Shown in pieces: positions 43,906 through 59,881 of a stretch of 64,000 nt of DNA. The first letter of the stretch is position 1. The number at the start of each line of letters is the position of its first letter. The notes beneath the pieces are model-generated. The model had not been told where the DNA came from. It saw nothing but the letters and a program-made list of their open reading frames with translations, and did no database searches. Position numbers and translations under genes: made by a program. Source of the DNA: a bacterium (GTDB taxonomy: Bacteria; UBA8248); the NCBI GenBank assembly GCA_965219955.1, contig OZ244799.1:1312001-1376000 (forward strand), written 5' to 3'.

Positions 43906-45825
43906 CTAGGCTTGGCCGGGCGCCAAGTCAGTCGGCGATGACTGCGGATCCTCACGAGGTTTTCCCTCCGGGTGTGGTGAAGCCGAAGTGTTTTCTTCGC
44001 CAACCTCGTCTTTTCGCTTTGGACTCCTGGAAATTTGTCCGGTTTCCATCAAAGACTCGATATCTTTGAGATCGATGGTTTCATACTCGAGCAACGCATT
44101 GGCGAGCAAATCGAGCTTGTCCCGATTTTCCTCGAGCAATTTATACGCTCTCTCATAACTCGACGAAACCATATCCTTCACTTCATTATCGATTTCAAGT
44201 GCCACCTGGTCGCTATAGTCCCTGTGCTGGGAGATTTCACGCCCCAGGAAGATCTGCTCATGTTTTTTCCCGTATGCCAAAGGACCGAGTTTCTCGCTCA
44301 TCCCCCATTCACAAACCATGCTTCTCGCCAGGTCGGTCGATGTCTGGATGTCGGCTTTCGCGCCTGTCGTCAGTTCTTCAAAAACCAACATCTCCGCAGC
44401 ACGTCCACCCATCAGGCAGGCAAGCTGGTTCGTCAAAAACGTTTTATCGTTGCTGTAGCGATCCTCAAGAGGGGAAGACCATGTGCTTCCCAACGAAAAA
44501 CCCCGCGGGATGATCGTCACCTTCTCGACGGGATCCGTCCCGGGTATCAGCAAGGAAACAAGGGCGTGCCCCGCTTCGTGGTAGGCTGTATTTCTCTTCT
44601 CCTTTTCGCTGAGCGCCATGCTGCGCCGCTCCTTGCCCATCAAGACTTTATCCTTCGCTTCCATCAGGTCTTCATTTTCAACAGAGCTTTTTCCCCGGCG
44701 CGCCGCAAGGAGTGCGGATTCGTTCAAAAGGTTCGCCAGATCAGCGCCCGCAAATCGCGGGGTGCCACGCGCTATGAGATTCAAATCGACGGTTTCATCG
44801 AGCGGCACCTTCTCCGCATGCACTTTCAAAATCGCCAGACGGCCTTTAATGTCAGGCAAGGAAACAACAATCTGGCGGTCAAAGCGGCCCGGGCGGAGGA
44901 GAGCCGGGTCCAACACGTCCGGCCGGTTCGTCGCCGCCATCAGGATGACCCCGTCATTCGACTCAAAACCATCCATCTCGACGAGGAGCTGATTGAGCGT
45001 CTGCTCACGTTCATCGTGGCCGCCACCGAGGCCGGCGCCCCTGTGCCGCCCGACAGCATCAATCTCATCAATGAAAATGATGCACGGCGCATTTGCTTTG
45101 CCCTGCTCGAACAAATCCCGGACTCTCGACGCCCCGACCCCGACAAACATCTCCACAAAACTGGAGCCGCTTATCGAGAAAAACGGCACATCCGCTTCGC
45201 CCGCGATGGCGCGCGCCAGCAGGGTTTTGCCCGTGCCCGGAGGGCCGACCATAAGGACACCCTTGGGAATGCGTGCGCCCAGGCGCGTGAACTTTTGCGG
45301 ATCGCGGAGAAAATCAACGAGTTCTTCGAGTTCTTCCTTCGCTTCCTCGATGCCGGCCACATCCGCGAACGTGATCTTTTTCTTCGCGGATTCGGGCATC
45401 ATTCGCGCTTTGCTTTTTCCAAACGACAGCGCTTTGGAGCCGCCCATCTGCATCTGGCGCATGAAGAAAATCCAAACGCCCAGCATCACCAGCATGGGCA
45501 GCCAACTCAACAGCATGTTCATATACCAGGAGTTTTGTTCTACGGGCTGCGCCGTGATGCGAACGCCCTTGGCTCTGAGGGTGTCGATCAGTTTCGGGTC
45601 CTTGGGAGCGTGGGTATGGAAGGATCTGCCGCTCAGGTAGCGGCCCCGGATGTTGTCACCCTGGACGATCACTTCGCTCACCTGTCCTTCAGATACCGCT
45701 TGCAGAAAATCGCTATAAACAACCGTTCTGTCCGTCGAGCGCGGGCTATTGAAGGCCTGGAACAAGCCCACCATTATCAACCCGATAATCAGCCAGAGCG
45801 CCAAATTCTTGTAAAATTGATTCAA
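43906..45825 (-). CDS. ftsH: ATP-dependent zinc metalloprotease FtsH
   Basis: Two TMs, [28 protein letters not shown]. Confidence 0.98.
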
Positions 45826-45921
45826 AATGCCTTCCTTCTCTTTCCGGTGAGCGGCTCTTTAAACCCTGAAAACAAGTTATCAGGATTTTTCTCATCCGTC
45901 TACGAGTGAAACTTCAAATCA

Positions 45922-47406
45922 CTAAGCCAACGAACTTAAGAACTTACTATCTCCATTCTCCAGCAACGCTTTAAGGATAACCCCCTGCTTTCCGCTCCCG
46001 TCAAGCAGGAAATCCGCTGAAACCTGATGGCCTATGATCCATGCCACCTTGTCTCCGGCGGTCAGGAGAGGTATCCGGTTCCTGAAGGCTCTCGGTATTT
46101 TTCGTTCTATGAGGTAATCCTTGAGTTTCCTCTCTTTCGTTCGCCCCAAGGGACGGAATCGGTCTCCATCGCGCCGGGTCCGGATACAGGCGTCCGCCCC
46201 CAGCTTTTCCAGATCAAACCGCGCCTCCCATGCCCCATTTGTTTGAGGGGTGAAATCGCATGAAGCTTCTATTTCCAGACACAGCGAATGATGAACCGTC
46301 TTTCCTGGAACCCGCAGCCTTTGCTCCTCAAGCAGCCTGGATTCCATGCGGGAACAACCGAAGATCAGACGGCCATATTCCCTTCTCGCCACCAGGCCGC
46401 CCGGCAAACTCAACACTCCCGAGGGCTTATCCCCCATCGCCAGGCCATCCAGGTCTTCAATCCATTTTCGCAGAGCACGCCTGCGGGCGTGAGCAGGCGA
46501 TTCGTCCCTGAGCATGTCCAGCACCGAGCGCCAAAGCTCGGCTCTATGCAACGGAGAGAGTTCTTTCACCTCGCGTAATGGGAAGACAATGAGTTCCTCA
46601 TCATCCTCACGGATGAATTTCGCACTCAAATCCCTGGACATTTTATCCATGAGAGAGACAAGCGGGGCGGATATCTCCGCACTCCTGGCGATTCCGCTGA
46701 CAGCCGCATCGCCTATATGTTCCCGTACGGCCGGCATGATTTTTTTGCGTATCCGGTTTCTGAGGCGGCTCTCGTCCGCATTCATTTCATCCTCGACCCA
46801 GGAGATGCTCTGCGCCTCCAGATACTCCACAATCTCCTTGCGCGACACGTTCAGCAAGGGCCGGATGATGTGGAACCCCTCTTCTCCTTTCGACGAAAAC
46901 GGGGTCCGCCACTTCATGCCTGAAATCCCTCTCACGCCTGCTCCTTCAAACAAGCGCATGAGCACGGTTTCAGCCTGGTCATCCATGTTGTGGGCCAACG
47001 CGAGGGTATCGGCGCCAATCTCCCTGGCGGCCGTCAGAAAAGCCGAACGCCTCGATTCGCGAGCAGCTCCTTCGAGTCCCAATTGCGCTATTCGAGACAC
47101 ACGAACATGCTCGCAACGGAAATCAATGCCGTACAGCTGACACACGTGCCTGGCATGTTCAGCGTCTTTTTTCGACAGGCTCCCGCGGAGCCCGTGTTCG
47201 ACATGAACGGCACAAAGGGGCTGTGATTCCGGCAGAAGCGACTTTAAGGACATCAAGAGAGCCGTGGAATCCGCGCCACCGGAAAAACCAACGAGCAAAG
47301 GGGCAGACCTGGCCTTATAAGCCGATTTTCTGAGGCCCTTTCTCACCTTGGCCTCGAATATTTTTTTTGCTTTCAAGGAAGTTCCTTGCGAGGCGCCTGC
47401 CATCAC
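45922..47406 (-). CDS. tilS: tRNA(Ile)-lysidine synthetase
   Basis: SGGADS, HVEHGLR, AHNMDDQAET, RPLL, RNRIR, KLKDYLI. Confidence 0.95.
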   Translation of the reverse strand: MMAGASQGTSLKAKKIFEAKVRKGLRKSAYKARSAPLLVGFSGGADSTALLMSLKSLLPESQPLCAVHVEHGLRGSLSKKDAEHARHVCQLYGIDFRCEHVRVSRIAQLGLEGAARESRRSAFLTAAREIGADTLALAHNMDDQAETVLMRLFEGAGVRGISGMKWRTPFSSKGEEGFHIIRPLLNVSRKEIVEYLEAQSISWVEDEMNADESRLRNRIRKKIMPAVREHIGDAAVSGIARSAEISAPLVSLMDKMSRDLSAKFIREDDEELIVFPLREVKELSPLHRAELWRSVLDMLRDESPAHARRRALRKWIEDLDGLAMGDKPSGVLSLPGGLVARREYGRLIFGCSRMESRLLEEQRLRVPGKTVHHSLCLEIEASCDFTPQTNGAWEARFDLEKLGADACIRTRRDGDRFRPLGRTKERKLKDYLIERKIPRAFRNRIPLLTAGDKVAWIIGHQVSADFLLDGSGKQGVILKALLENGDSKFLSSLA

Positions 47407-47437
47407 CTGAGATATCCTCCCCTGAGCGGCGAGGAAT

Positions 47438-47514
47438 TGGTAGCGGCGGAGGGACTTGAACCCCCAACACTACGGATATGAGCCGTATGCTCTAACCGGT
47501 TGAGCTACGCCGCC
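47438..47514 (-). tRNA. tRNA-Met (CAT), elongator type
   Basis: GGCGGCG acceptor stem, TACGG-CTCATAT-CCGTA anticodon arm, GTTCAAGTCC T-loop, CCA. Confidence 0.93.
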
Positions 47515-47527
47515 AGAATGCACCCCG

Positions 47528-47683
47528 TCAGGGAGACTGCTTGGGTCGGAATATGGCGAAAACAAACATGGCAGAGAGAATATAGAAAAAAACCTGCATA
47601 CCAATGTCTTCCATGCGAAAGCCTACCATCAAGCACAAATATCCCAAAAAGAGCAAGATCAGAATTTCGATTTCACGCCTCAT
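47528..47683 (-). CDS. 51-aa membrane microprotein with two predicted TM helices
   Basis: MRREIEILILLFLGYLCLMVGF..VFFYILSAMFVFAIFRPK; GGAG RBS; ATGA overlap with the upstream ORF. Confidence 0.6.
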   Translation of the reverse strand: MRREIEILILLFLGYLCLMVGFRMEDIGMQVFFYILSAMFVFAIFRPKQSP

Positions 47684-47877
47684 TTGTCGTTTGCTCCCCG
47701 TTCTAGGCCTTCGGATGAAGACGGAATTTCCTTCGATTGCGTTTGCTGTAACCTCAAGTCCGGTGAAAATTCCGGACAAAAAATCGCCCCGTTCGGTTCA
47801 TTACGATACTTCAGGCGGCAACCCTCTCGCCAAGCGCAAACAACACACTCGCGAACTCCCTGGTAGGCCACGCTCAA
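47680..47877 (-). CDS. Small four-cysteine protein (CxxCAWRxxC..CPEF)
   Basis: AAGGAG RBS + TTG 47877; CVVCAWREGC..FCPEFSPD; TTGACG..TATATT promoter-like sequence at 47916-47945. Confidence 0.65.
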   Translation of the reverse strand: MSVAYQGVRECVVCAWREGCRLKYRNEPNGAIFCPEFSPDLRLQQTQSKEIPSSSEGLERGANDK

Positions 47878-48052
47878 ATATCTCCTTCCAAAATTCCGCC
47901 TCACTACAGGAGCAGAATATAAATGCCCGGAACCGAAAACGTCAAGTTTTCTATTTTTTCCGGCCTCCCCTTCCCATAAACCCCGGAGCCGGACAACACT
48001 TTATGGAAAATTCCACAAACCGCTTCAAAACAAAACCTGAAAACCATCTGAA

Positions 48053-49765
48053 TTAACTGCCGGATTTCATTTCTTCGGAAACCAGATTTTCCAAAAAAGC
48101 CGCCGACTCGCCAATCGCTACAAGTTGTGTTTCTCCCGTCCTTCTCGATTTTATCTCGATTTTACCTTCCTTGAGACCTCTGGGTCCGATGACCGCTTTG
48201 TAAGGGAACCCGATGAGATCGGCATCCTTGAATTTCACGCCCGGGCGCTCATCCCTGTCATCAAGCGCGACATCCAGCCCTGCGGCCTCGAGCGAGTCGT
48301 AGAGGTGCTCGCAAACTTTCATGGTTTCATCATCCACTCTCACCGGAATGATGTCCACATGATACGGAGCGATGGGAGTCGGCCAGATGATGCCGTCCTC
48401 ATCATGGTTCTGCTCAATGGCCGCCGCGACTGTTCGGCCTACGCCGATGCCATAACAGCCCATGACGATAGAGTGCGTCTCGCCATTCTCGTCCTGATAG
48501 GTAGCGTCTAAAGATTCAGAATACTTGCAACCCAGCTTGAAGACATGCCCCACTTCGATGCCTCGCCGGATGCTGAGCCCAGCCTCGCATTTTGGGCAGG
48601 CGTCTCCTGCCTGGGCAACCGTGAGGTCGGCAAATATGCCTGCGGTAAAGTCACGACCCTCGCGAGCGCCTGTGTAGTGATAGTCCGTTTGATTTGCCCC
48701 GACAATCAGCCCTTCGCTATTTTCAAGGGCGCAATCCGCCACGAGCCGAACATCAGACAAGCCTACAGGCCCTGCAAAGCCCACTTCGGAGTTGGTCAGC
48801 TTCTCTACCGTCTCGGCGTCGGCAAGTTCGATATCCACCGCATCAAGCGCATTTTTCAGTTTGATCTCGTTCAATTCCCTGTGGCCTGGAATCATAGCGG
48901 CCACCGGCTCATCGTCTGCGATATACAAAAGAGTCTTGACCATGCGATACGGAGGCAGAGAGAAAAATTCCGCCACTTCTTCTATGGAATGAGCGTCGGG
49001 AGTATGGACTTTTTCAAGTTCGCCTCCCTCATTCCCGGGCAACTTCAAGGATACCGGCGATTTTTCCACATTCGCCGCGTACCCACACGAATCACAAACC
49101 GTGATCGCCTCCTCGCCCGTATCGGCCATGACCATGAACTCATGCGAAAAACTCCCGCCGATGGCCCCTGAATCCGCCTCCACGGCGCTGAACTTCAGTC
49201 CACAGCGCTGAAATATCCGGGTATAGGCCTGCACCATTTCTTCATAACTTCGCTCCGCGCCCGCCTCGTCTCTATCAAAGCTGTAGCCGTCCTTCATCGT
49301 GAACTCCCGCCCACGCATCACGCCGAAACGGGGCCTGATCTCGTCCCTGAATTTCGTTTGAATCTGATAGAGATTGAGCGGCAGGTCCCGATAACTCCTT
49401 ACCTCGCGCGCCACCAGATCGGTGATTACCTCCTCATGCGTGGGTCCCAGACAAAAATCGCGCTCATGGCGATCTTTCAAGCGGATCAATTCTTTGCCGT
49501 ATACTTCCCACCGTCCCGTCTTTCGCCAAAGCTCGGCCGGGTTCAGCGCAGGAAGGAAAACTTCTTGCGCGTCTGCGCGATTCAACTCCTCACGCAATAT
49601 CTGCTCGACCTTGCGCTGCACGCGCACGCCGATGGGCAAAAGCGTATACACGCCTGCCGCCAATCGGCGGATCATGCCTGAGCGCACCATCAGTTTATGG
49701 CTGACGACTTCCGCTTCGGCGGGCGCTTCTTTTAATGTGGGCAAAAAACCTCGTGAGAATCGCAT
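48053..49765 (-). CDS. proS: Proline--tRNA ligase
   Basis: LGPTHEE, QTKFRDEIRPRFG, INS editing domain, GIEVGHVF, MGCYGIG. Confidence 0.98.
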   Translation of the reverse strand: MRFSRGFLPTLKEAPAEAEVVSHKLMVRSGMIRRLAAGVYTLLPIGVRVQRKVEQILREELNRADAQEVFLPALNPAELWRKTGRWEVYGKELIRLKDRHERDFCLGPTHEEVITDLVAREVRSYRDLPLNLYQIQTKFRDEIRPRFGVMRGREFTMKDGYSFDRDEAGAERSYEEMVQAYTRIFQRCGLKFSAVEADSGAIGGSFSHEFMVMADTGEEAITVCDSCGYAANVEKSPVSLKLPGNEGGELEKVHTPDAHSIEEVAEFFSLPPYRMVKTLLYIADDEPVAAMIPGHRELNEIKLKNALDAVDIELADAETVEKLTNSEVGFAGPVGLSDVRLVADCALENSEGLIVGANQTDYHYTGAREGRDFTAGIFADLTVAQAGDACPKCEAGLSIRRGIEVGHVFKLGCKYSESLDATYQDENGETHSIVMGCYGIGVGRTVAAAIEQNHDEDGIIWPTPIAPYHVDIIPVRVDDETMKVCEHLYDSLEAAGLDVALDDRDERPGVKFKDADLIGFPYKAVIGPRGLKEGKIEIKSRRTGETQLVAIGESAAFLENLVSEEMKSGS

Positions 49766-49778
49766 CTATCAGATTTTC

Positions 49779-51023
49779 TTAGGAGTGAGTTACCTCAAAT
49801 TGGCCTTTTTCGTATTGCTCCGCAAGTTGCTCTACGCGCTCCACCAGGTTTTTCTTGATGTCCTCATAGGATACCAGACCTGACTTCTCGCCTTTCATGA
49901 AAATCAGAGCGCGCTTATGGCCGCCGGCCACGCCGATGTCGGCATCTTTCGCCTCACCAGGACCGTTCACCTCACAACCCATGACGGCCACCGTAATAGG
50001 CGCGTCAATATGGGCAAGCTCCTGCTCCACTTCCATGGTGAGCTTATCCACGTCAATTTGAACACGCCCGCACGATGGACACGCGACGACATTCACGCCC
50101 TTCTGGCGCAACTTCAGGCTTTTTAGAATTTCGTAGCCCACGCGCACCTCTTCCACCGGGTCCGCCGCCAGGGAAACGCGAATCGTGTCACCGATACCTT
50201 CCGAGAGCAGAATACCCAGGCCGACAGAACTTTTTACGCTGCCCGTCTGGAGGCTCCCGCTCTCCGTGATGCCCAGATGGAGAGGGTACTCGACGCGTTT
50301 CGCCATCAACCGATAGGCTTTTACCGTCCTCGCGACATCGGAGGCCTTCAAGGAGATCTTCGTGTCATAAAAGCTTCGCTTCTCCAGCATGGCGACATGG
50401 CGCAGTCCACTCTCCACCATCGCCTCGGGCGTTGCGCCGCCGAAACGATCGAGCAGGTGCTTTTCCAGGGACCCGGCGTTCACGCCAACGCGGATGGGCA
50501 GGCCATTGCCTTTCGCCGCATCGACCACTTCGCTCACCCTCTCTTCCCCGTTGATGTTGCCGGGGTTGATGCGCAGGCAATCGATCCCCGCATCCGCAGC
50601 CATCAAGGCATAGCGATAGTCGAAGTGAATATCCGCCACCAGGGGCATCTCGGTGCGTTTCCTGATTTCACAGAGCGCATTGGCCGACTTCTCGTCAGGA
50701 ACAGCCAGACGAACAATTTCACAGCCCGCAGCTTCCAGCCGCTCTATTTGGTCTACGGTCCCCTCCACATCATGCGTGTAGGTGTTGCACATCGATTGCA
50801 CCACGATGGGAGCACCGCCACCAATTTTGACGCCCCGCACTTCAACCTGAGAACTTCTTCGTCGATTGAGAGGGAACAAGGAAGGATCCGCACAAGGCAA
50901 CGCTTCGCCGGCCTCTTCCGCTCCAAGCATCGGCAAAGCGGCGCCGCTCTGCTCTTTAGGCGGGAGGCCAACCCCCGGTATGGGTTTGGCGTAAAAAACG
51001 TCGTCCGTAAATGGCTCAAACAA
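49779..51023 (-). CDS. ispG: HMBPP synthase IspG
   Basis: VQSM, ADIHFD, RINPGN, GIGDTIRVSL, CPSCGR, VMGCEVNGPGE; N-terminal extension, start uncertain. Confidence 0.96.
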   Translation of the reverse strand: MFEPFTDDVFYAKPIPGVGLPPKEQSGAALPMLGAEEAGEALPCADPSLFPLNRRRSSQVEVRGVKIGGGAPIVVQSMCNTYTHDVEGTVDQIERLEAAGCEIVRLAVPDEKSANALCEIRKRTEMPLVADIHFDYRYALMAADAGIDCLRINPGNINGEERVSEVVDAAKGNGLPIRVGVNAGSLEKHLLDRFGGATPEAMVESGLRHVAMLEKRSFYDTKISLKASDVARTVKAYRLMAKRVEYPLHLGITESGSLQTGSVKSSVGLGILLSEGIGDTIRVSLAADPVEEVRVGYEILKSLKLRQKGVNVVACPSCGRVQIDVDKLTMEVEQELAHIDAPITVAVMGCEVNGPGEAKDADIGVAGGHKRALIFMKGEKSGLVSYEDIKKNLVERVEQLAEQYEKGQFEVTHS

Positions 51024-51034
51024 TGCCCAATCCC

Positions 51035-52231
51035 CTATTCGCCTTTTCTGCTCTCAGGAGATGACTTCGTAACGTCCTTCATTTTCTCCACTTGCTTCTC
51101 TTTTTTCGTTATCGTTGACGGTTCATTACCGAAAAGATAATACACGCTGTCCTTATAGGTGGCAAAGATCATCAAACCGATGAGTAGAACGGTGCCGACC
51201 TGCATGGCCAACTCCCGGACTCTCAGGCTAATAGGTTTGCCACGCAAGCCTTCAATAAGCAAGAAAAAAATATGCCCGCCATCGAGAACCGGAATCGGCA
51301 GCAAGTTCAAAATCGCCAGATTGATGCTGAGCAAAATCGTAAACATGACAAGGTAGCGGAACCCGCGCTGCGCCTGCTCTGCGGCCACCACGGAGATACG
51401 AATCGGCCCTCCGATGTCCGCAGGAATGGTCTTCGTGAGCATCGAATACAACGTAACGACCGTTAAGCTGGCGATGCGGTAATTTTGCTCAAAACCCTTT
51501 CCCAGAGACTCCAGAAAGCCAAAACGCTCGGTGTAGGTGCCTTGTCCGATACTGATCCCGATCCGGCCGTAGCCCAACTCTTTCCCCGTCGTGCTCTTCG
51601 ATGTCGGAACGATGGGAGTCTCAAAGGATTTGCGGCCGCGCTCCACCGTCAACACAAGTTCTTTACCGGCATTTCTTCGTACGATTTCGACAAGCTCGGA
51701 CCACTTTTGAATTCGCGTCCCATCAATAGCCACGATGTGATCGCCGGTTTGAAGGTTCGCATTTTGCGCAGGCGTATCAGGCAATACACCACCGACCCAG
51801 GTTCCGGGTACTGGAATACCACCAAGGTGCAACCCCCAGCTGAGGAGTATGGCCAGGGCGACGTTAAACAAGGGTCCTGCAGAAATGACGGCCAATCGGT
51901 GGCTCACAGGGCGCAAGTAGAAAGATTTCTCCGGCTCTTCCGGCTCTTTGGGCGCATCGGGATTATCAGGTTGCGCTTCCGGGTCTTCTCCCACGAGCTT
52001 CACATAGCCGCCCAGGGGAATCAGTGACACGCGATATTCCGTCTCTCCCCGCTGAAAACCCCAGATGCGGCGGCCGAAGCCCAAAGAGAATGTGGAAACC
52101 CCGATTTTGAGCCATTTCGCAACGAGATGATGGCCCAACTCATGGATAAAAATGAGCAACCCGAGAACCAGCACTGCCCAGAAAATCGTTTGCCCAAACC
52201 CCATCACCCAGTTGATGATTTGCATCGCCAT
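51035..52231 (-). CDS. rseP: RIP metalloprotease RseP
   Basis: HELGH, FSLGFG, PLGGYV, PDZ domain, NLLPIPVLDGG. Confidence 0.96.
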   Translation of the reverse strand: MAMQIINWVMGFGQTIFWAVLVLGLLIFIHELGHHLVAKWLKIGVSTFSLGFGRRIWGFQRGETEYRVSLIPLGGYVKLVGEDPEAQPDNPDAPKEPEEPEKSFYLRPVSHRLAVISAGPLFNVALAILLSWGLHLGGIPVPGTWVGGVLPDTPAQNANLQTGDHIVAIDGTRIQKWSELVEIVRRNAGKELVLTVERGRKSFETPIVPTSKSTTGKELGYGRIGISIGQGTYTERFGFLESLGKGFEQNYRIASLTVVTLYSMLTKTIPADIGGPIRISVVAAEQAQRGFRYLVMFTILLSINLAILNLLPIPVLDGGHIFFLLIEGLRGKPISLRVRELAMQVGTVLLIGLMIFATYKDSVYYLFGNEPSTITKKEKQVEKMKDVTKSSPESRKGE

Positions 52232-52249
52232 TCTCGATTCAATCCTTAT

Positions 52250-52990
52250 TTATCGCTGGCCGTTATGAGCCGGCATTTGTATAACTTCGACATTCGGCGG
52301 CACGACAAACTGAAATTTCTCTCCTGCAATTCTGACGTTTTCTTCGACATCAGAAAACCGCAGGTGGCTTTTATTGCCGATGTTGTCAATATAGGCCAAG
52401 GTGAGGATTCTGAAATTCTCAGGGTCCACCTCGACCCACATTCGGCGAAACGAGGCGCCCGCGGCCTTAGGCTCCAAACGAATGCGATGAGGCTGACCAG
52501 CCTTCCAGATTCCCCCGCTTCGCCTGGCAACGCCAATTTCTTCTACGGTTACATGAAAATTCTTTTTCAAATTCCCCTTGCCCGACAAGAATAACAAAGG
52601 AGTCGCACCAAACCCAGAGCCTCCGGTTTCGGAAACAATCACCTGCTTGAAGCGGACCGTGTAGAGCCAATACTTGCGGCCATCAGAGACCAGAACCTGC
52701 TTTTCAGGCTTGACGTACTCCATGCGCAATTTGCCGGGCTTCTTCCACGCGAAAAGCCCGCTCGACGTCGTTGTTCGTCCAAGGGATTTCAATTCATTTT
52801 TCTGCTCGAAAGAGGCTTGCAGGGATTCCAGGGCCTCATATTTTTCCTGGAGCGTCGTGACTATTTTCTCCATTTTCAGACGCGATTCTTCCGCCACAGG
52901 CGCGCCAGATGCGCGCCCTTGCGAATACGCGAGAAACGAAAAAAGAAATACCAGTATCAGGAAACTCGATTTGCGCAAAACTCTCTTCAT
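52250..52990 (-). CDS. lolA: Outer-membrane lipoprotein carrier LolA
   Basis: Signal peptide, ASFEQ, KKPGKLRMEY, VSDG..W.Y, FQFVVPPNVEVI. Confidence 0.88.
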   Translation of the reverse strand: MKRVLRKSSFLILVFLFSFLAYSQGRASGAPVAEESRLKMEKIVTTLQEKYEALESLQASFEQKNELKSLGRTTTSSGLFAWKKPGKLRMEYVKPEKQVLVSDGRKYWLYTVRFKQVIVSETGGSGFGATPLLFLSGKGNLKKNFHVTVEEIGVARRSGGIWKAGQPHRIRLEPKAAGASFRRMWVEVDPENFRILTLAYIDNIGNKSHLRFSDVEENVRIAGEKFQFVVPPNVEVIQMPAHNGQR

Positions 52991-53003
52991 CCTCTGTGGA
53001 TAA

Positions 53004-53657
53004 CTACTCCGAAACGGGCGAGATGAAACCGCGCTGTTCCGCAAGAGCGTCTCCTGCATATTGCACAGTGCCATCAATACAGCGAACACTTCCCTCGGCG
53101 ATGAGCCGCACCGCCAACGGGTATATGCGGTGCTCATAAACGAGAATCCTCTCCGAAAGGGTATTCTCATCGTCATGAGGCAGCACCGGCACAGCGGCTT
53201 GTAAAATGATCGGCCCCGTATCCACCCCCTCGTCCACGAAGTGGACCGTGCAGCCGGCCACCCTCACGCCGGCGTCCAGCGCTTTTTTCTGTGCATGCAG
53301 GCCCGGGAAACTCGGCAGAAGCGAGGGGTGAATGTTGATGATTCTCCCTGCAAAACGGCTCACGAAATCCGGCGGCAAAATACGCATAAAACCAGCGCAA
53401 CAGATGAGGTCGATTTCGCAATTTTCGATTTCATCTCCCATCCGCAGAAAAAAAGCATCGTCCTTGGGCGCGAAGTGTCTGTGTCTTATTCCAGCCTTCG
53501 AGGCGCGCTCGAGAGCATACGCATTTCTTCTGTCACTCAGCACCAGCACAACTTCCGCCGGAAAACCCGTTTTCCGCCCGGCATCGATGAGGGCCTGCAG
53601 ATTCGACCCGCGCCCCGAGGCCAAAACACCCACCCGTAATTGTGCTCTTGCGTTCAC
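53004..53657 (-). CDS. purN: Phosphoribosylglycinamide formyltransferase
   Basis: SGRGSNLQA, AGFMRIL, NIHPSLLP, GCTVHFV, DTGPII. Confidence 0.97.
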   Translation of the reverse strand: MNARAQLRVGVLASGRGSNLQALIDAGRKTGFPAEVVLVLSDRRNAYALERASKAGIRHRHFAPKDDAFFLRMGDEIENCEIDLICCAGFMRILPPDFVSRFAGRIINIHPSLLPSFPGLHAQKKALDAGVRVAGCTVHFVDEGVDTGPIILQAAVPVLPHDDENTLSERILVYEHRIYPLAVRLIAEGSVRCIDGTVQYAGDALAEQRGFISPVSE

Positions 53658-53660
53658 GAT

Positions 53661-54713
53661 TTATATGCTTTCAATGACGACGGAATGACCATCCTTTGTT
53701 CTTGGGGCGACTTCGCCGACAACCATGGCCTGTTCTCCGGCATTTCTCAAACATTCGAGCAAATATCCCGCTCGCTCGGCCCTCGCGAGGAAGACAAAAC
53801 CCAGGCCCATATTAAAAGTGCGATACATCTCCGCGCTCTCAACCGGACCGAGCTCTTGAATCAACGGAAATATCTCCGGCATCTCCCACTTTTCCGGATA
53901 GAATTTCGCCTGCAATCCATCCGGCACCACACGGCTCACATTTCCCGGAATGCCGCCTCCCGTGATGTGCGCGGCGCCGCTTATCCCCTCTTCTCCTCGA
54001 ACAGAGCCAGCTCCATTGGCGTAAATCCGGGTCGGCTCCAATAAGACATTTTCAACAGGAACACCCAGCCTTTCCGCCGCAAAATCCCGTTTTCCTTCTG
54101 ACTCGAATATCTTCCGCACCAGAGAATACCCGTTGCTATGAATTCCTGAAGAAGGCAGTGCGAGTATGGCGTCGCCGGCTTTCACAGGCGGCCTGTCGTC
54201 CAATTTCCTGCGTTCAACCACCCCTACCGCAAAACCAGCGAGATCGTAAACGCCCGGTCCATACATGTCGGGCATCTCCGCCGTCTCACCACCGATGAGG
54301 GCGCAACCTGCCTCCCGGCAACCCTGGGCGATTCCGGATACGGCTGCCTTCAATACGTTTTGATCGATCCTGCCCGTCGCGATGTAGTCGAGAAAAAAAA
54401 GGGGTTCTGCTCCCGTGGTCAGGATGTCGTTGACGCACATGGCCACCAGGTCAATCCCAACGGAATCATGGCGCTCGAACTCCTGGGCCAGGAGCAACTT
54501 CGTGCCGACGCCGTCGGTGCCTGAAACGAGTACGGGATCCTCATATTCGCCACCCAGGCGGAACAAACCCGCAAAATCAGCCGACCCCTTCAGGATACGA
54601 CCGCTTTGGCTGTCATGGGTAGATGCAACAGCCTGGGCGATGGCGTGAACGAAGTCATCTCCCGAGTGCACATCGACACCTGCGTCGCGGTATGTCAGAC
54701 GATCCTCATTCAA
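53661..54713 (-). CDS. purM: Phosphoribosylformylglycinamidine cyclo-ligase
   Basis: YRDAGVD, TDGVGTK, GGETAEMP, SSGIHSNGYSL, HITGGG, TFNMG. Confidence 0.97.
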   Translation of the reverse strand: MNEDRLTYRDAGVDVHSGDDFVHAIAQAVASTHDSQSGRILKGSADFAGLFRLGGEYEDPVLVSGTDGVGTKLLLAQEFERHDSVGIDLVAMCVNDILTTGAEPLFFLDYIATGRIDQNVLKAAVSGIAQGCREAGCALIGGETAEMPDMYGPGVYDLAGFAVGVVERRKLDDRPPVKAGDAILALPSSGIHSNGYSLVRKIFESEGKRDFAAERLGVPVENVLLEPTRIYANGAGSVRGEEGISGAAHITGGGIPGNVSRVVPDGLQAKFYPEKWEMPEIFPLIQELGPVESAEMYRTFNMGLGFVFLARAERAGYLLECLRNAGEQAMVVGEVAPRTKDGHSVVIESI

Positions 54714-54764
54714 AAGTGATGTTCCATGATTTAGCAGGCGGAATCGCTCGGGATGAACTCAAAA

Positions 54765-56897
54765 TCAGCCGTGGACTTCCATCAGCTTCTTGACCAAAGC
54801 CACATTGTGCCGGTGACCACTTCTCTCGGCGGTCACTTTCCCCCGGATAGGACGACCGGTTAAATACAGGTCTCCGATAACGTCAAGAATTTTATGTCGA
54901 ACGAACTCATTGGGAAATCGCAGTTGGGTATTCACGACACGCGCCTTGTCCACAAGAATCACGTTATCCCAACGCCCCCCCTCGGCCAGGCCCATTTTCT
55001 CGAGCGACTCCAGCTCAGAAACAAAACCAAACGTACGAGCGGGCGCGATTTCTTCCTGGAAACTCAAGGCATTCTTATGTTCGTAGAGGTAGGATTGTTT
55101 TCCAATCGGCTCAGGATAATCGATGAGGTAGGAAACCGAAAAAGAATCCGCCGGCTCTATACGAATATACCCCTTCTCGTCGGCCGGCTCGCCGATTTCG
55201 TAAACCTTGTCAACCCACAAGTCTTCGCGTTTTTCCTTTTGATCCTCGATACCCGCTTCTTCGAGCAAGCGGCAAAACTCGACTGCCGATCCATCCATGA
55301 CGGGCACTTCCTCGCTCATCTTGATGAGTATATTGCTAATCTTATACGCGTGCAGCGCGCTCATGAGATGCTCTATCGTTCGAGCCGTCACGGCCCCATT
55401 GCGCAAGTTCGTCGCATGGTTGGTGCCATCCACGGAATCGACATTCGCCCTCACAATATCGGGGCTCGTCAGGCTGCCGAACTGAATCCCGCTCCCCGGC
55501 GACAAGGGTTCAATGATCAATCCCGTTTTCAGCCCCGAGTGAAGCCCCCGGCCATACAACACGACACTCTTCGAAATACTCCTTTGACTTGTTTCCCTAA
55601 GCGTCGCTGAAGCCGGCAATACGGGCTCTATATCGTATGCTTTTATTTTTCGCTTTAAGGCAGGCTTCGTCATGCCTACAGCCTGGGCGGTTTTGTTGAT
55701 ATCCCAACCGTGCTCTTCCAAATGGAAGGACAGGTACTTTCTCTCCCATTGGGTTCTGGCCACATTGAAATGAGACGGGACGTCGTCTCTCGATGTGTCC
55801 GCTTCGAAATCAGAAGCTTCGCGTATCGCGTACGGCAAGTGGGCGATTTGAATCTCCGCTCCTTGTGATGCATATGCCGCTTTGGTCACTGCGCCTTTCA
55901 GTTCAGCTATATTGCCCGGCCAGTCATAGTCTTCAAGTAATGCAATGACATCCTCTGAAAATTTCTTCTCATACCTGCCAATTTCCGTGCATTCATTCAA
56001 AAATCTGTTGGCTAACGGGAGAATGTCCTCTTTTCGTTCGCGCAAAGAGGGCAAATTTATTACATCGGCGCCTATCTGGGTGGACAAGGCCCGTACGTAA
56101 GCCTTGTCTTTCGGGGTCCCCATGTGATCAAGAGATACCACCAAACGTATTGAATCCGTTGCATGCCCAAGGAACCGAGCGAGAAACCCCTCACGCTCGG
56201 CCATGGGCAACTGCTCCAGACCATCAAGATATACCGTCCCCTGAAAGGTGCCGGGCACCAGCCGCTCCAGCGTCTCTTCCCATTCGCCTGCCTCAGCCAC
56301 CGGAAACAGCGAGCGGCAATGAACCGGCCTGAAGCCTTCCTCTTCACTGATGCCGTTCTTATGAATCATCCTCGCTATAAAACGCTTGCCGGTTCCCCTT
56401 TCGCCCGCGATCAGCAAGGGGCCAATATCTTTCGCCGCTCTCCTGATAGCTCTTCGAACCCTTTGGATACCCTTGCTGGCGCCGTCAAGCATTACATCAA
56501 AGACATCACTTACCTTGGGCTCCTTGGCCCTTCGCGCTTGAACAGCGGAATCGACTATACGCAAAACCGCATCGATGGACAGGGGTTTTTCAATGAAATT
56601 GAAAGCTCCCAACTTGGTTGCGGCCACGGCGGTTTCAATATTGCCGTGGCCCGACATCACGACGACTTCGATATCCGCGTTCGACTCTTTCACCGCTTGC
56701 AGGGTCTTGATTCCATCAATGCCCGGCATCCACACGTCGACCAAAACCACATCAGGAGTTTCAGTTCGAACCAGCTTCAGGGCAGTTTCTCCAGACTCGG
56801 CCCGCTCTACACGATACCCTTCATCGTGCAAAACGTCTTCCAGGCTGGCGAGTATCTCGCGCTCATCATCGACGATGAGGACATGTCCCTTATCCAA
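54765..56897 (-). CDS. lpxC: Fusion: NtrX-like receiver + degenerate AAA+ + Fis-type HTH + UDP-3-O-acyl-GlcNAc deacetylase LpxC
   Basis: Receiver LIVDDE / LVDVWMP / MSGHG / FIEKP; GERGTGK, WPGNIAEL; HTH; then QRSI..GRGLHSG, TIEHLMSAL, PVMDGSA, ARTFGF, EFVRHKILDVIGDL, SGHRHN. Confidence 0.92.
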   Translation of the reverse strand: MDKGHVLIVDDEREILASLEDVLHDEGYRVERAESGETALKLVRTETPDVVLVDVWMPGIDGIKTLQAVKESNADIEVVVMSGHGNIETAVAATKLGAFNFIEKPLSIDAVLRIVDSAVQARRAKEPKVSDVFDVMLDGASKGIQRVRRAIRRAAKDIGPLLIAGERGTGKRFIARMIHKNGISEEEGFRPVHCRSLFPVAEAGEWEETLERLVPGTFQGTVYLDGLEQLPMAEREGFLARFLGHATDSIRLVVSLDHMGTPKDKAYVRALSTQIGADVINLPSLRERKEDILPLANRFLNECTEIGRYEKKFSEDVIALLEDYDWPGNIAELKGAVTKAAYASQGAEIQIAHLPYAIREASDFEADTSRDDVPSHFNVARTQWERKYLSFHLEEHGWDINKTAQAVGMTKPALKRKIKAYDIEPVLPASATLRETSQRSISKSVVLYGRGLHSGLKTGLIIEPLSPGSGIQFGSLTSPDIVRANVDSVDGTNHATNLRNGAVTARTIEHLMSALHAYKISNILIKMSEEVPVMDGSAVEFCRLLEEAGIEDQKEKREDLWVDKVYEIGEPADEKGYIRIEPADSFSVSYLIDYPEPIGKQSYLYEHKNALSFQEEIAPARTFGFVSELESLEKMGLAEGGRWDNVILVDKARVVNTQLRFPNEFVRHKILDVIGDLYLTGRPIRGKVTAERSGHRHNVALVKKLMEVHG

Positions 56898-59154
56898 TGG
56901 AAGCCGTCCTTTGCTTTTCAGGCGTGATGTCCGCAGCAGGCGCCAATGGCAACGTTACGCGAAAAACAGAACCCGCGGGATAGTTGTCTCGCACGCCTAT
57001 CGTTCCATTATGGTCCGCCACGATGCGATGACATATAGCCAAACCCAACCCCGAGCCTCTGTCTTTCGTAGAAAAATAAGGAGAGAATATATGGCCTTTC
57101 ACATCTTCCGATATACCCTGCCCCTGGTCGGCAACTTCAATAACTATCATATTTCTGTCCGTATCGCTCCATGCCTGCAAATTTATCTCGCCTTCGACCT
57201 CCTGGGATTCAAAGGCGTTTTCCAGCAAATTGATGAACACGCGCTGCAACTGCTCGGGATCCGCCATGATCGCTGCATTCCCTGCAGTGATTTGAATGGA
57301 AAATTTCACATTCCCTTTTCTGCCGCGATATAAATTCGCAACATCTTCGATGAGGGGAGCAAACCCGCAAAGCCTCAGTCTCGGCTCCGGCATTCGCGCG
57401 AATCGGCTGAATTCATTCACCATTTCAATCAGACTCGTTACCTGGTTGATAATGGTGTCCGTGCAAGATTCAAATACTTCCGCAAAATCATAGGCTTCAC
57501 TTTCAAATTTTCTTCTCATTCTCTGGGCAGAGAGTTGAATCGGCGTAAGCGGATTTTTGATCTCATGCGCGATGCCGCGAGCCACTTCCTGCCATGCGGC
57601 CACTTTCTGAGCCCGTATCAAAGCCGTCATATCATCAAACACAATGACTGCTCCGAGCCTGCCACCATCCGCGCTTTTGAGCAGGGTCAAACTCGCGCGC
57701 AGCGTCAGTACGCGGCCATCAATCATGATCTCCACTTGCTCCGAAGCGCTCTGGTGTTTTCGATCCCTCATGGAACGCATCAGATGACGGACGGGTTCGA
57801 GATGCGCGCTTTCGAAAACCTCGCTGAACATTCGACCCACGGCATCTTGAGGCTCAATGCTCAGCAACTCCCCGGCCGCTTTGTTGAGAATGGTAACGCG
57901 CCCCCGGCGATTGATTGATATCACACCAGCTCCGATATTTTCGAGCATCGCTTCCATATACCTGCGTCTTCTGTCGATTTCCAGGTTGGAATGGCTCAAG
58001 ATTTCAGAGGATTCTTCGATTTTCTCTTTATTGGCCAACAATTCTTCCGTCATGCTGTTGAATGCGTTGACCAGAATCCCCACTTCCCCGTCTGCCTGCG
58101 CATCCACGCGATGTTCGAGATCGCCATCCGACACCGCCCTTGTGGCTTCCGCCAATTTCTCGATGGGAACCGTAATCCCGCGCGCGAGGTAGAAGCCAAA
58201 CCATATGGCCGCAAAGAGAATGAGCAAAGTGACCACCAAAAAGGTGATGATGTAGTTTGCCTTGATTGGATCCTTGGACAGTTCCAACTCCTTATAACTC
58301 ACGAAGGAGTCCGATATGTCTTTGATCTTCTCCACGAGCCTGTCCGAAACATATTTGGATACGACGACAAACCCCACTACTTTCTTTTGAACCTTCAAAG
58401 GCGCCACGCCATAGATGACATCACCCTTTTCCCAATTCTCTATACTTGAGCGCGCCCCCCCATCAATCACCTGATCCACGTATCCCGCCAGTGGGGAGAA
58501 TGTCGCGGCTCGTTCCAACCCCGGACGTTTGACCGATACGATCTCTTTTCGGTCTCTATCGTAGAGTTGGATGAAGTCTACCCCTAAGCTCTTTCTCTCG
58601 GATTCCAGTTTTTTTTCAATCGCCTCAGGGTTCGCTAACGTGTCGGAGTGCGACTTCTCCAACACAAGCGCCAGTCGACTCGCACTGAACAGCGCGTTTC
58701 GCTCCACCTCCCGATAATACGTCTGAGCCACCTCGAACGACCCTTTGAGCGCTCTCTCCACATTCATGTTGAACAAGGCGTTAAAGCTCTGGTTTATCAA
58801 GCCGCTGGCGACCACAAAAAGAGCCACCACAGGGATGAGCGTGAATCCCACAAAAGCCAACACAAGCTTCAATTGCAAGCGTGAACGGCCGGCGCCCGTT
58901 CTCCCCTCGTAGTAAAGACGCACCAGGTGCTTTGCCACCAAAAGAAGAACCACCATGAGCAGAATGATGCTCAGGTTCACAAGCGCAAATACAACGACGT
59001 TGTTAAGCAGGGGGACTCCCGGCTCAAGCTCCTTGAAGTAAATCCAGGCCGTGAACGAGAGAGTCGCAATGACGATCAAAGCGATGAAAGAGCGCAGAAG
59101 CGTTCTTCGTCGACGGGAAGAGATTTCCAGGTTTTTCAGTCGCTTTGGATACAA
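56890..59154 (-). CDS. ntrY: NtrY-like membrane sensor histidine kinase (TMs, HAMP, PAS, HisKA, HATPase)
   Basis: ARGITVPI HAMP, AWQEVARGIAHEIKNPLTPIQLSAQR H-box, NLLENA, DQGQG, GSGLGL. Confidence 0.9.
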   Translation of the reverse strand: MYPKRLKNLEISSRRRRTLLRSFIALIVIATLSFTAWIYFKELEPGVPLLNNVVVFALVNLSIILLMVVLLLVAKHLVRLYYEGRTGAGRSRLQLKLVLAFVGFTLIPVVALFVVASGLINQSFNALFNMNVERALKGSFEVAQTYYREVERNALFSASRLALVLEKSHSDTLANPEAIEKKLESERKSLGVDFIQLYDRDRKEIVSVKRPGLERAATFSPLAGYVDQVIDGGARSSIENWEKGDVIYGVAPLKVQKKVVGFVVVSKYVSDRLVEKIKDISDSFVSYKELELSKDPIKANYIITFLVVTLLILFAAIWFGFYLARGITVPIEKLAEATRAVSDGDLEHRVDAQADGEVGILVNAFNSMTEELLANKEKIEESSEILSHSNLEIDRRRRYMEAMLENIGAGVISINRRGRVTILNKAAGELLSIEPQDAVGRMFSEVFESAHLEPVRHLMRSMRDRKHQSASEQVEIMIDGRVLTLRASLTLLKSADGGRLGAVIVFDDMTALIRAQKVAAWQEVARGIAHEIKNPLTPIQLSAQRMRRKFESEAYDFAEVFESCTDTIINQVTSLIEMVNEFSRFARMPEPRLRLCGFAPLIEDVANLYRGRKGNVKFSIQITAGNAAIMADPEQLQRVFINLLENAFESQEVEGEINLQAWSDTDRNMIVIEVADQGQGISEDVKGHIFSPYFSTKDRGSGLGLAICHRIVADHNGTIGVRDNYPAGSVFRVTLPLAPAADITPEKQRTASIG

Positions 59155-59157
59155 AAT

Positions 59158-59763
59158 TCACATTCCTTTAGAACTGAACGTCCGGGAATAGCTCCAATCA
59201 GAATTCTTCCCCCAAAAAGCGAGCAAATAATTAAAGGGAAAAACAAAATCCACCTGATTCAATCGCGCCCTGATTTTGACATAATATCGACCATTGAGGG
59301 ACAGGGCCTCGCCAGACAGAATGGGCGCGCCATTCAATTCACGCATCCAGTCCATCATTTCGTCCTGGCTTTTCGTCACTTTTCTTTCAATGTCTTTCGC
59401 GCCTTCTTTGAGATGAAAGGTGTATGTTTTTTTCAAGGCGCTATATTTCACCTGATGATGCAATTGCCGCGCAGCGACTTCCAGATCATAGATTAGCTTG
59501 CGAGAGCGGAGGAGACTGACATCAAAGATAAACTTCGTGGTCACACCGCTATGGATGGCTTCCAGGAGCTTTGGCGAAAACGCGCCCAAAAGAGAACCAA
59601 AAACGAGCAACTCCCCTTTCTTTTCAACGACGACGATATCCCGTATTCGAATTCCGCCCTGGTCATCCGTTGCGGACAGCGCCGGCCCCGCCAGAAAGAA
59701 GAGCACACAAATGGCCATGCTCAGTTTTCTCAGAACAAATGTTTTCTGGAAGTTAGACAACAT
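59158..59763 (-). CDS. DUF4390-like exported protein
   Basis: Signal peptide, EAIHSGV..F, KYSALKKTY, YYVKIRA; usual position upstream of ntrY. Confidence 0.75.
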   Translation of the reverse strand: MLSNFQKTFVLRKLSMAICVLFFLAGPALSATDDQGGIRIRDIVVVEKKGELLVFGSLLGAFSPKLLEAIHSGVTTKFIFDVSLLRSRKLIYDLEVAARQLHHQVKYSALKKTYTFHLKEGAKDIERKVTKSQDEMMDWMRELNGAPILSGEALSLNGRYYVKIRARLNQVDFVFPFNYLLAFWGKNSDWSYSRTFSSKGM

Positions 59764-59881
59764 ATGTTCTCCTTGGCCCTTAAGTTCAATGCTACCGCAT
59801 ACAACAAAAGCTCTCAATCCCCTTGTTTGGCCTCTCTGCCCTCAAGGCTTCATAAAACACATCCAGATGGCGCGCCGTGGT

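Follow-up and report, generated by a model that had tools for sequence, protein, structure and literature searches.

The 64,000-nucleotide stretch of DNA analyzed here (the window; positions 1,312,001 to 1,376,000 of contig OZ244799.1, assembly GCA_965219955.1, GTDB lineage UBA8248) encodes a protein in which an NtrX-type response regulator and a complete LpxC share one reading frame, directly behind the genes for a DUF4390 protein and an NtrY-like sensor histidine kinase. LpxC is essential, catalyzes the flux-setting step of lipid A synthesis and is a long-standing antibiotic target. We lean, with confidence somewhat better than even, toward the view that the three genes form a three-part envelope-signaling system whose regulator, joined to LpxC, is phosphorylated and sets LpxC output at the protein level. 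The membrane kinase NtrY would phosphorylate D54 of the fused receiver, and the phosphorylation state of that receiver would then set LpxC output at the level of the protein. Most likely the receiver would act either on how the protein self-associates or, by way of flexible linkers, as a movable cover that shields and exposes the enzyme as in CheB-type enzymes, and the candidates for the coupling are dimerization, active-site occlusion, stability and localization. In the long forms of the protein the helix-turn-helix (HTH) would probably add DNA binding, perhaps for autoregulation of the operon. A sensor kinase, a phospho-receiver and an enzyme wired together in this way would provide a testable system for signal-controlled lipopolysaccharide (LPS) synthesis in non-proteobacterial diderms, and would assign one concrete output at the envelope to the NtrYX/DUF4390 systems, which are poorly understood.

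A preliminary description of the window, made from its letters alone, read the gene as a single 710-residue open reading frame (ORF) with a receiver, an AAA+ region, a Fis-like HTH and a full LpxC, and Pfam searches confirmed each of these parts. The fused protein also passed the NCBIfam lpxC equivalog TIGR00325 (238.8 bits, cut-off 187.25). Against the NtrX equivalog NF051870 it scored 244.1 bits, which is below the cut-off of 600; NF051870 was still the top-scoring named family for the N-terminal half. The layout is NtrX-like in comprising a receiver, an AAA+ region without GAFTGA, a Fis-type HTH and a gene placed behind ntrY, and the regulator half aligned best to the solved Brucella NtrX 5m7n (E 2e-46, residues 5-421), with the HTH pairing with the NtrX C-terminus. 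The classical Sigma54_activat model of Pfam matched the fused protein solely over profile positions 3-61 of 168. In the enzyme half, TIEH, RTFGF, HKILDxIGDLYL and SGH aligned column for column with the solved P. aeruginosa LpxC, where the conserved columns correspond to TVEH, RTFGF, HKILDAIGDLYL and SGH, and the domain could be aligned to the solved Aquifex LpxC as well. We take these motifs to supply the Glu-His pair, the zinc ligands (His, His, Asp), the second Asp, the general-acid His and the active-site Thr and Lys in their usual LpxC roles. The domain stops at the equivalent of about residue 280 in the P. aeruginosa enzyme, so that a C-terminal tail proper to LpxC is missing.

Residues were counted in an alignment of the 98 full-length fused homologues (680-760 amino acids) out of 120 listed. 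In the receiver, D54, S/T82 and K104 were kept in 98/98 and D10 and D11 in 96/98, and in LpxC the residues E509, H510, T622, F623, H668, K669, D672, D676, H695 and N698 were kept in every homologue. The motifs that had been picked out by eye in the window (DDE, LVDVWMP, MSGHG and EKP in the receiver; TIEH, HKILD..GD and SGH in LpxC) are all present and are invariant or nearly so in this set. A second alignment of 76 rows, which combined long, short and other-phylum forms, gave an invariant receiver pocket and retained E509, H510, H668, K669, D672, D676 and H695 in 76/76.

That the fusion is an assembly or annotation artefact, or a recent accidental read-through, is a possibility to which we give practically no weight. 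The junction sequence is present in sequencing runs of eight studies. A sponge-metagenome contig of 69,657 bases, which may be the window's own source, spans positions 54700-57000 with 4 differences. A contig of 7,373 bases from another study spans the whole of the same interval with 6 differences, and a third study supplied one of 3,576 bases that has 87 differences over 54700-56692. Each of the three aligned with 0 gaps, and indels were listed for none. The two contigs from the further studies refute an artefact, as do the occurrence of the fusion in 50 of 51 genomes of the phylum and the purifying selection on every module, both of which are set out below. Two contigs from a metatranscriptome library also overlap the linker and add little, since DNA carry-over is possible and contigs cannot show transcript ends. 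The uninterrupted frame from HTH to LpxC that had first been read from the window stood up, with independent contigs free of gaps over the linker and neither a stop nor a frameshift between the two domains in relatives or other assemblies.

The genome from which the window comes is one 4.28-Mb contig, estimated to be 94% complete, and its single LpxC match is the fused gene, which answers in the affirmative whether this is the only lpxC in the genome. LpxD and LpxB were found elsewhere on the chromosome. Judged by this gene content, with a sole LpxC and with LpxD and LpxB present, the fused protein serves the lipid A pathway of the cell.

To learn how widely the fusion is held, we searched 51 genomes of the phylum to which the window's Nitrospina-group bacterium belongs, the Nitrospinota, with the fused protein as query. 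The whole query was recovered in one open frame without stops in 34 of the 51, and in five others (G009, G011, G013, G019 and G029) a long form was cut by contig ends or frameshifts. In 11 genomes we found a short form, in which the receiver (query residues ~1-128) and LpxC (~432-707) lie in one frame of 430-540 residues. One genome, G003 (93% complete), gave no match to the fused query and no match to the Pfam LpxC model. The Pfam model identified one locus in each of the same 50 genomes, and a free gene of ~300 residues in none of the 51. Twelve short Nitrospinota proteins consisted of a receiver, a basic low-complexity stretch of ~45-60 residues and LpxC; in the short forms P0053-P0063, a Lys/Arg-rich low-complexity segment of 45-60 residues stands in the place of the AAA+/HTH part and may bind membrane or nucleic acid or be a mere spacer. 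One of the twelve, P0043, keeps the sequence KIKAYDIE from the end of the last HTH helix, indicating that it arose by internal deletion from a long form.

The AAA+/HTH module is thus wholly deleted in 11 of the 50 fused Nitrospinota genomes, and it has been deleted repeatedly in other lineages. We consider the strongest argument for our reading to be that the kinase keeps a receiver-LpxC partner that has no DNA-binding part, which argues that the enzyme itself is the output. By their architecture, the short forms show that selection keeps the receiver-enzyme link. The connection between kinase and fusion proposed in the preliminary description proved to be constant within the phylum, because NtrY lies directly upstream of the fused gene in 13/13 Nitrospinota loci examined, including those of five short-form genomes. 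DUF4390 was detected upstream of the kinase in 9/13, and 2 of the 4 remaining loci are on contigs that break off inside the kinase gene. The order mutS - DUF4390 - NtrY - [receiver...LpxC] - purM - purN was complete in 8 of the 13 loci; in the remaining 5, mutS or DUF4390 was undetected or a contig ended.

An internal start, or cleavage of the linker, could release a normal LpxC, in which case the fusion would merely pack genes together. The linker is indeed flexible (low predicted local distance difference test (pLDDT) scores at residues 427-433) and its sequence drifts, and in-frame GTG and TTG codons occur near the LpxC start in the window. These two codons sit inside the first LpxC strand, however, and the upstream AAGGAG is at least 17 nt away. 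We tried an internal-start scan on 23 fused loci and scored 20, as the junction was not located by motif search in 3. In none of the 20 scored loci did a start codon accompanied by a Shine-Dalgarno motif occupy a conserved position, any Shine-Dalgarno-like motif occurred in just 2 of them, each time at a different position, and one locus had no start codon at all in the 32 junction codons. No conserved internal start yielding a free LpxC was found at these loci; the presence of such a start is what the preliminary description had named as fatal to its proposal. Linker length is nearly constant (gap fraction 0.11 in the 98 homologues), and the fusion is maintained across the phylum and, within one clade, across phyla. 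We regard the release of a normal LpxC as very improbable.

The four modules are in different states. Walker A residues G165, G168, G170 and K171 of the AAA+ region were kept in 98/98 homologues, and the Walker B glutamate was kept in 6/98, with LDGL in the window against LDEV in Brucella NtrX. The arginine-finger positions, which read YVRALSTQI in the window and FREDLYYRL in NtrC1, are not conserved. A GAFTGA-like motif was found in 0/98 fused homologues and in 0/6 further long ORFs, and the L1/GAFTGA loop region is deleted in the window's genus. From these residues we conclude that the AAA+ module has decayed and is incapable of contact with sigma-54; it may still bind nucleotide, and ATP hydrolysis appears unlikely. 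The term "NtrC-type AAA+" in the preliminary description, which implies an active ATPase, could accordingly not be upheld, all the more as the module is absent from 11 of 50 genomes. Gating of LpxC by ATP-driven oligomerization is likewise unlikely, because GAFTGA is absent, the Walker B glutamate is rare and the arginine fingers are not conserved. A less decayed stage was observed in a metagenome-assembled genome (MAG) labeled Thermodesulfobacteriota (L030:3813-6017), where Sigma54_activat matched with 130 bits over profile positions 1-167 of 168, yet GAFTGA was absent.

Within the genus, the ratio of nonsynonymous to synonymous substitution rates (dN/dS; NG86, 7 pairs, some of them near dS saturation) was 0.004-0.08 for the receiver, 0.02-0.10 for LpxC, 0.04-0.17 for the HTH and 0.13-0.22 for the AAA+ region. 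By this measure all four modules are under purifying selection, and the constraint on the HTH suggests that it is probably still used in the window's lineage. The linker, at 0.2-2 over 16 codons, drifts in sequence. An AlphaFold2 (AF2) model built on a 73-row alignment contained four folded modules with a mean pLDDT of 81.9 and a predicted template modeling score (pTM) of 0.58, and had low confidence at residues 128-135, 363-376 and 427-433. The model fits domains that are held on flexible tethers and are therefore movable.

We next considered fused forms outside Nitrospinota. A scan with the family alignment over one genome per species (185,579 species) left 80 loci, and in 30 of these the match reached into LpxC. 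Pfam identified a receiver, with or without AAA+, and LpxC in one ORF in 18/18 loci tested. Long fused forms were found in MAGs labeled Thermodesulfobacteriota and Desulfomonile; short forms were found in MAGs labeled "Deltaproteobacteria", Binatia, Thermoanaerobaculia, Holophagae, Thermodesulfovibrionia and Desulfocapsaceae and in the isolate Desulfopila sp. IMCC35006. Two frames of 1378 and 1007 residues that looked like a triple fusion of kinase, receiver and LpxC were rejected, as Pfam gave a receiver and LpxC alone, in the last ~430 residues. In a sample of 121 Acidobacteriota genomes, 9 had the fused form, 1 was ambiguous (it falls in the fused clade), 107 had a free LpxC only, including the two unpublished genomes G079 and G104, which enter no other result given here, and 4 gave no match. 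A sample of 121 Desulfobacterota genomes contained about 27 fused cases among the matches listed (15 short, 8 in frames of 690-837 residues and 4 in frames of 450-488 residues). Nine of the 27 were retrieved and all fell in the fused clade, and three Desulfobacterota long forms were confirmed by Pfam. The fused gene was the sole LpxC in 4 of 5 further genomes, namely those of Binatia, a 1.1-Mb deltaproteobacterial bin, Holophagales and Desulfomonile, and an NtrY-like kinase lay directly upstream in 7/27 fused loci from other lineages. The remark in the preliminary description that the architecture may already exist unannotated in databases was correct and even understated the case, since the architecture pervades one phylum and is also present in four or more further lineages.

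From 85 LpxC domains (54 fused, 30 free, 1 ambiguous) we inferred a maximum-likelihood tree (IQ-TREE quick mode, LG+C20+F+G4), with free LpxCs taken from Acidobacteriota and Desulfobacterota only and an arbitrary root. In this tree a branch of length 0.76, with a Shimodaira-Hasegawa-like approximate likelihood ratio test (SH-aLRT) value of 100, separates the 54 fused domains and the ambiguous row from the free ones. On this phylogeny the fused LpxC domains are of single origin. Short forms were scattered among long forms in the tree, indicating that the AAA+/HTH part was lost several times. Eight positions (458, 459, 516, 526, 542, 595, 657 and 678 in window numbering) separate fused from free LpxC, being at least 90% conserved in the 55 LpxCs of the fused clade and shared with at most 10% of the 30 free ones; position 526 is K in the fused and E in the free enzymes, which is a charge reversal. 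These eight residues may mark a surface used for contacts or one whose regulatory role has changed. Four fused sequences, L101 (Desulfopila sp. IMCC35006), L068, L100 and L129, form a subclade on a long branch (0.86), and two of its genomes (G051 and G209) also have a free lpxC. In these genomes the fused gene is a paralogue, and its role may be accessory or otherwise distinct.

Unfused relatives place lpxC beside the same signaling genes. In Acidobacteriota with free lpxC, 6/6 loci had the order lpxC - DUF4390 - NtrY-like kinase - NtrC/NtrX-type regulator on one strand. Among the 50 unfused-regulator loci of the species scan, the kinase was directly upstream in 41, and in at least 15 the order was the same, with lpxC at the limit of the 4-kb flank; the labels of these loci include Syntrophales, Smithellaceae, Desulfotignum, Desulfobacteraceae, Ca. 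Acidoferrum and Ca. Rokubacteria. The same lpxC spacing was found in at least 16 Desulfobacterota genomes. The series from unfused lpxC-DUF4390-NtrY-NtrX, through a long fusion with a decayed AAA+ region, to a bare receiver-LpxC protein documents how a target can be captured by its regulator. Most likely a regulator of lpxC captured its own target in this way, moving control from transcription to the protein. We tentatively propose, with confidence just short of even, that the switch arose a single time, through capture of lpxC by an NtrX-type regulator that had controlled it, and that stepwise loss followed, of the sigma-54 contact, then of the ATPase by decay, then of the AAA+/HTH part by deletion.

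Published work gives this proposal a setting. In D. vulgaris, lpxC is the single mapped target of the regulator DVU2934, and in S. fumaroxidans lpxC lies directly upstream of the orthologous regulator operon, according to the relevant passages of PMC3333781. The DVU2931/DVU2934 pair therefore resembles the window in being a dedicated two-component link to lpxC, and the S. fumaroxidans order matches the unfused lpxC-DUF4390-NtrY-NtrX arrangement; it differs in that control is transcriptional and exerted by separate proteins, so that the likeness lies in target and gene order. In R. sphaeroides without ntrYX, the lpxC transcript is reported to rise 8.8-fold with more LPS (PMC7240162), LPS being up ~2-fold (PMC7240162, PMC12444477), and according to a 2025 review of lipid A regulation NtrYX represses the transcription of lpxC both in R. 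sphaeroides and in Caulobacter (PMC12444477). How LpxC activity is adjusted to the growth of the envelope is well understood chiefly in enterobacteria, through FtsH/LapB proteolysis. The same review regards LpxC control in most non-enterobacterial lineages as open, and the words "fusion" and "fused" do not occur in its main text (PMC12444477). For the Bordetella DUF4390 protein PlrP, genetic evidence is reported that it serves in the periplasm as a third component and keeps the phosphatase activity of PlrS in check (PMC13001219). PlrP-PlrS-PlrR is like the window in the order DUF4390, NtrY-like kinase and regulator, with overlapping genes and DUF4390 immediately 5′ of the kinase, whereas the window's regulator differs from those of PlrP-PlrS-PlrR and NtrYX in carrying a whole LpxC at its C-terminus. 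The survey of PlrP, in the sections describing it, covers proteobacteria only and makes no mention of LpxC or lipid A (PMC13001219). Brucella NtrX is an atypical, sigma-54-independent enhancer-binding protein that represses its own promoter, as summarized in PMC6158489. Brucella NtrX and the fused protein both lack GAFTGA, and the AAA+ region of the fused protein is the more decayed, with DG at Walker B, both arginine fingers replaced and two deletions.

Response regulators with enzymatic output are well known, among them CheB (receiver, flexible linker, methylesterase), PleD/WspR and RpfG. Our protein is like CheB in having an N-terminal receiver, a flexible or disordered linker, a C-terminal enzyme and a cognate kinase, and the short forms have exactly this two-domain layout. 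The likeness is one of architecture alone; where CheB and the others have a signaling enzyme as output, here it is a zinc amidase that carries out a committed biosynthetic step. A natural LpxC fusion is also known in LpxC-FabZ (NF009667, PRK13188), and the LpxC part of the window protein scored 211 bits on that model against a cut-off of 465. In LpxC-FabZ the partner is a pathway-related dehydratase at the LpxC C-terminus, whereas in the window it is a signaling protein at the N-terminus. The literature searched held no description of a receiver-LpxC or NtrX-LpxC fusion among the matches listed, in agreement with the earlier statement that no characterized example was known. Direct kinase control of LpxC is in our judgment probable, and such a control logic was not found among the matches listed in that literature.

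Two other accounts of the fusion deserve to be weighed against phosphorylation-dependent control of LpxC output. LpxC might be constitutively active, with the fusion tying its amount to an autoregulated operon, or substrate or product bound to LpxC might tune DNA binding by the HTH, as PutA and BirA are bifunctional enzyme-repressors. In keeping with this, the HTH is under purifying selection in the genus, a conserved sigma-70-type promoter-like site lies before the operon, Brucella NtrX represses its own promoter (PMC6158489, in the part cited above), and the control of lpxC by NtrYX and DVU2934 is transcriptional where it has been studied, as cited above. However, 11/50 fused Nitrospinota forms and most fused forms of other phyla have no HTH while the phospho-acceptor pocket is still invariant, and the HTH-less Nitrospinota forms also retain the adjacent kinase. 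Inspection by eye of one alignment of 7 upstream regions, no systematic search having been made, also revealed no conserved palindrome for the HTH before the operon. We consider this explanation unlikely, though it keeps some weight. A little less likely still is that the receiver is a degradation signal or an adaptor site that can be switched, and that the kinase would thereby set the amount of LpxC through proteolysis, arriving by another path at what FtsH/LapB control achieves in E. coli. LpxC amount is set by FtsH/LapB (YciM) proteolysis in enterobacteria (PMC12444477, in its account of this system), and Lon is implicated in LpxC proteolysis in some alphaproteobacteria (PMC12444477; PMC3333781, passage on LpxC proteolysis), so that this would follow an established logic of LpxC control; in addition, ftsH lies 9 kb downstream on the same strand, and the LpxC domain is without a C-terminal tail of its own. 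Yet no degron or adaptor was identified, and tilS-ftsH pairs close to housekeeping genes are common and do not speak for a link. The LapB zinc ribbon (PF18073) was unmatched in the window genome, although this 28-position model is unspecific, matching 10/14 controls including Gram-positives. The FtsH/LapB system has the same control point, the flux-setting lipid A enzyme, and it differs in that here the signal would come by phosphotransfer onto the enzyme's own chain and not by adaptor-guided degradation.

Several observations weigh against control of LpxC by phosphorylation of the fused receiver, or against its proposed origin. An effect of phosphorylation on LpxC activity, oligomeric state or stability is something that we infer from sequence comparison, and the AF2 monomer has no confident contact between receiver and LpxC (pTM as above). 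A free lpxC beside the fused copy in Desulfopila (G051) and in G209 indicates that the fused form need not carry the whole flux everywhere. In the fused loci of Acidobacteriota no kinase was detected within 4 kb upstream, and the sole such locus with an identified upstream gene has metH there. A sigma-54 -24/-12 site (10/11 specified bases) occurs before free lpxC in only 2/6 acidobacterial loci, these two being the ones in which the sigma-54 interaction domain of the regulator is intact (~240 bits); with a site in just 2/6, descent from a regulator acting on lpxC is plausible and not proven. Receiver identity was tried as a marker of descent and rejected, as unfused NtrX-like receivers had a median of 52% identity to the window receiver and fused ones 47-57%.

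The coordinates of the operon and of the modules of the fused protein are collected in the table below.

Table. Features of the DUF4390-NtrY-[regulator-LpxC] operon, in window coordinates
Feature	Position	Strand	Details
Fused gene (receiver, degenerate AAA+, HTH, linker, LpxC)	54765..56897	-	710 residues plus stop; TTG start
Receiver domain, residues 6-114, phospho-acceptor D54	56556..56882	-	Pfam Response_reg, 104 bits
Degenerate AAA+ core and lid, residues 139-367	55797..56483	-	Pfam Sigma54_activ_2, 139-285; AAA_lid_14, 286-367
Fis-type HTH, residues 383-421	55635..55751	-	Pfam HTH_8, 22.9 bits (cut-off 22)
16-residue linker, residues 422-437	55587..55634	-	Between HTH and LpxC; stop-free
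LpxC domain, residues 438-706	54780..55586	-	Pfam PF03331, 278.5 bits (cut-off 27); profile 1-267 of 268
NtrY-like sensor histidine kinase	56890..59154	-	Pfam NtrY_N, HAMP, PAS, HisKA, HATPase_c
DUF4390 gene, PlrP-like, probable periplasmic third component	59158..59763	-	Pfam DUF4390, 97 bits; likely start ATG 59763
Sigma-70-type promoter-like site TTGAGA-17-TAGCAT	59789..59817	-	Before DUF4390 gene; consensus scan and conservation

The genes of the operon are tightly packed. The fused ORF overlaps the stop of the kinase ORF by 8 nt and the DUF4390 ORF ends 3 nt before the kinase ORF, so that ORF coordinates and Pfam together bear out the overlap and the preceding DUF4390 gene noted in the preliminary description. 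ATG 59763, which coincides with the end coordinate of the preliminary description, is preceded by AAGGAG, and aligned DUF4390 orthologues start there. The protein has a putative export signal, a hydrophobic stretch ending in ALSA that was judged by eye from the translation. We rejected TTG 59817, the DUF4390 start in the automatic ORF list, because this TTG belongs to the -35 hexamer of the conserved promoter-like site; automatic calls may accordingly add 18 residues to the DUF4390 protein. Support for the promoter-like site comes from conservation, because the consensus scan was overall not above chance (3 found, 3.7 expected), and the pair TTGAG...TA(G/C)AAT recurs at this position in 5 of the 7 upstream regions, taken from different genera, that were aligned. 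Before the three operon genes of the window, no sigma-54 -24/-12 site with 9/11 bases or more was found.

In an 8-Mb genome of the same genus (L026, G029:C19), the NtrY, purM and LpxC matches are split, which probably reflects assembly errors or a mixed bin and not pseudogenes. Downstream of the fused gene on the same strand, window positions 43906-53657 (-) hold purM, purN, lolA, an RseP-type M50/PDZ protease gene, ispG, proS, tilS and ftsH. Several of these are envelope-related, yet such housekeeping neighborhoods are common and we draw no link from them.

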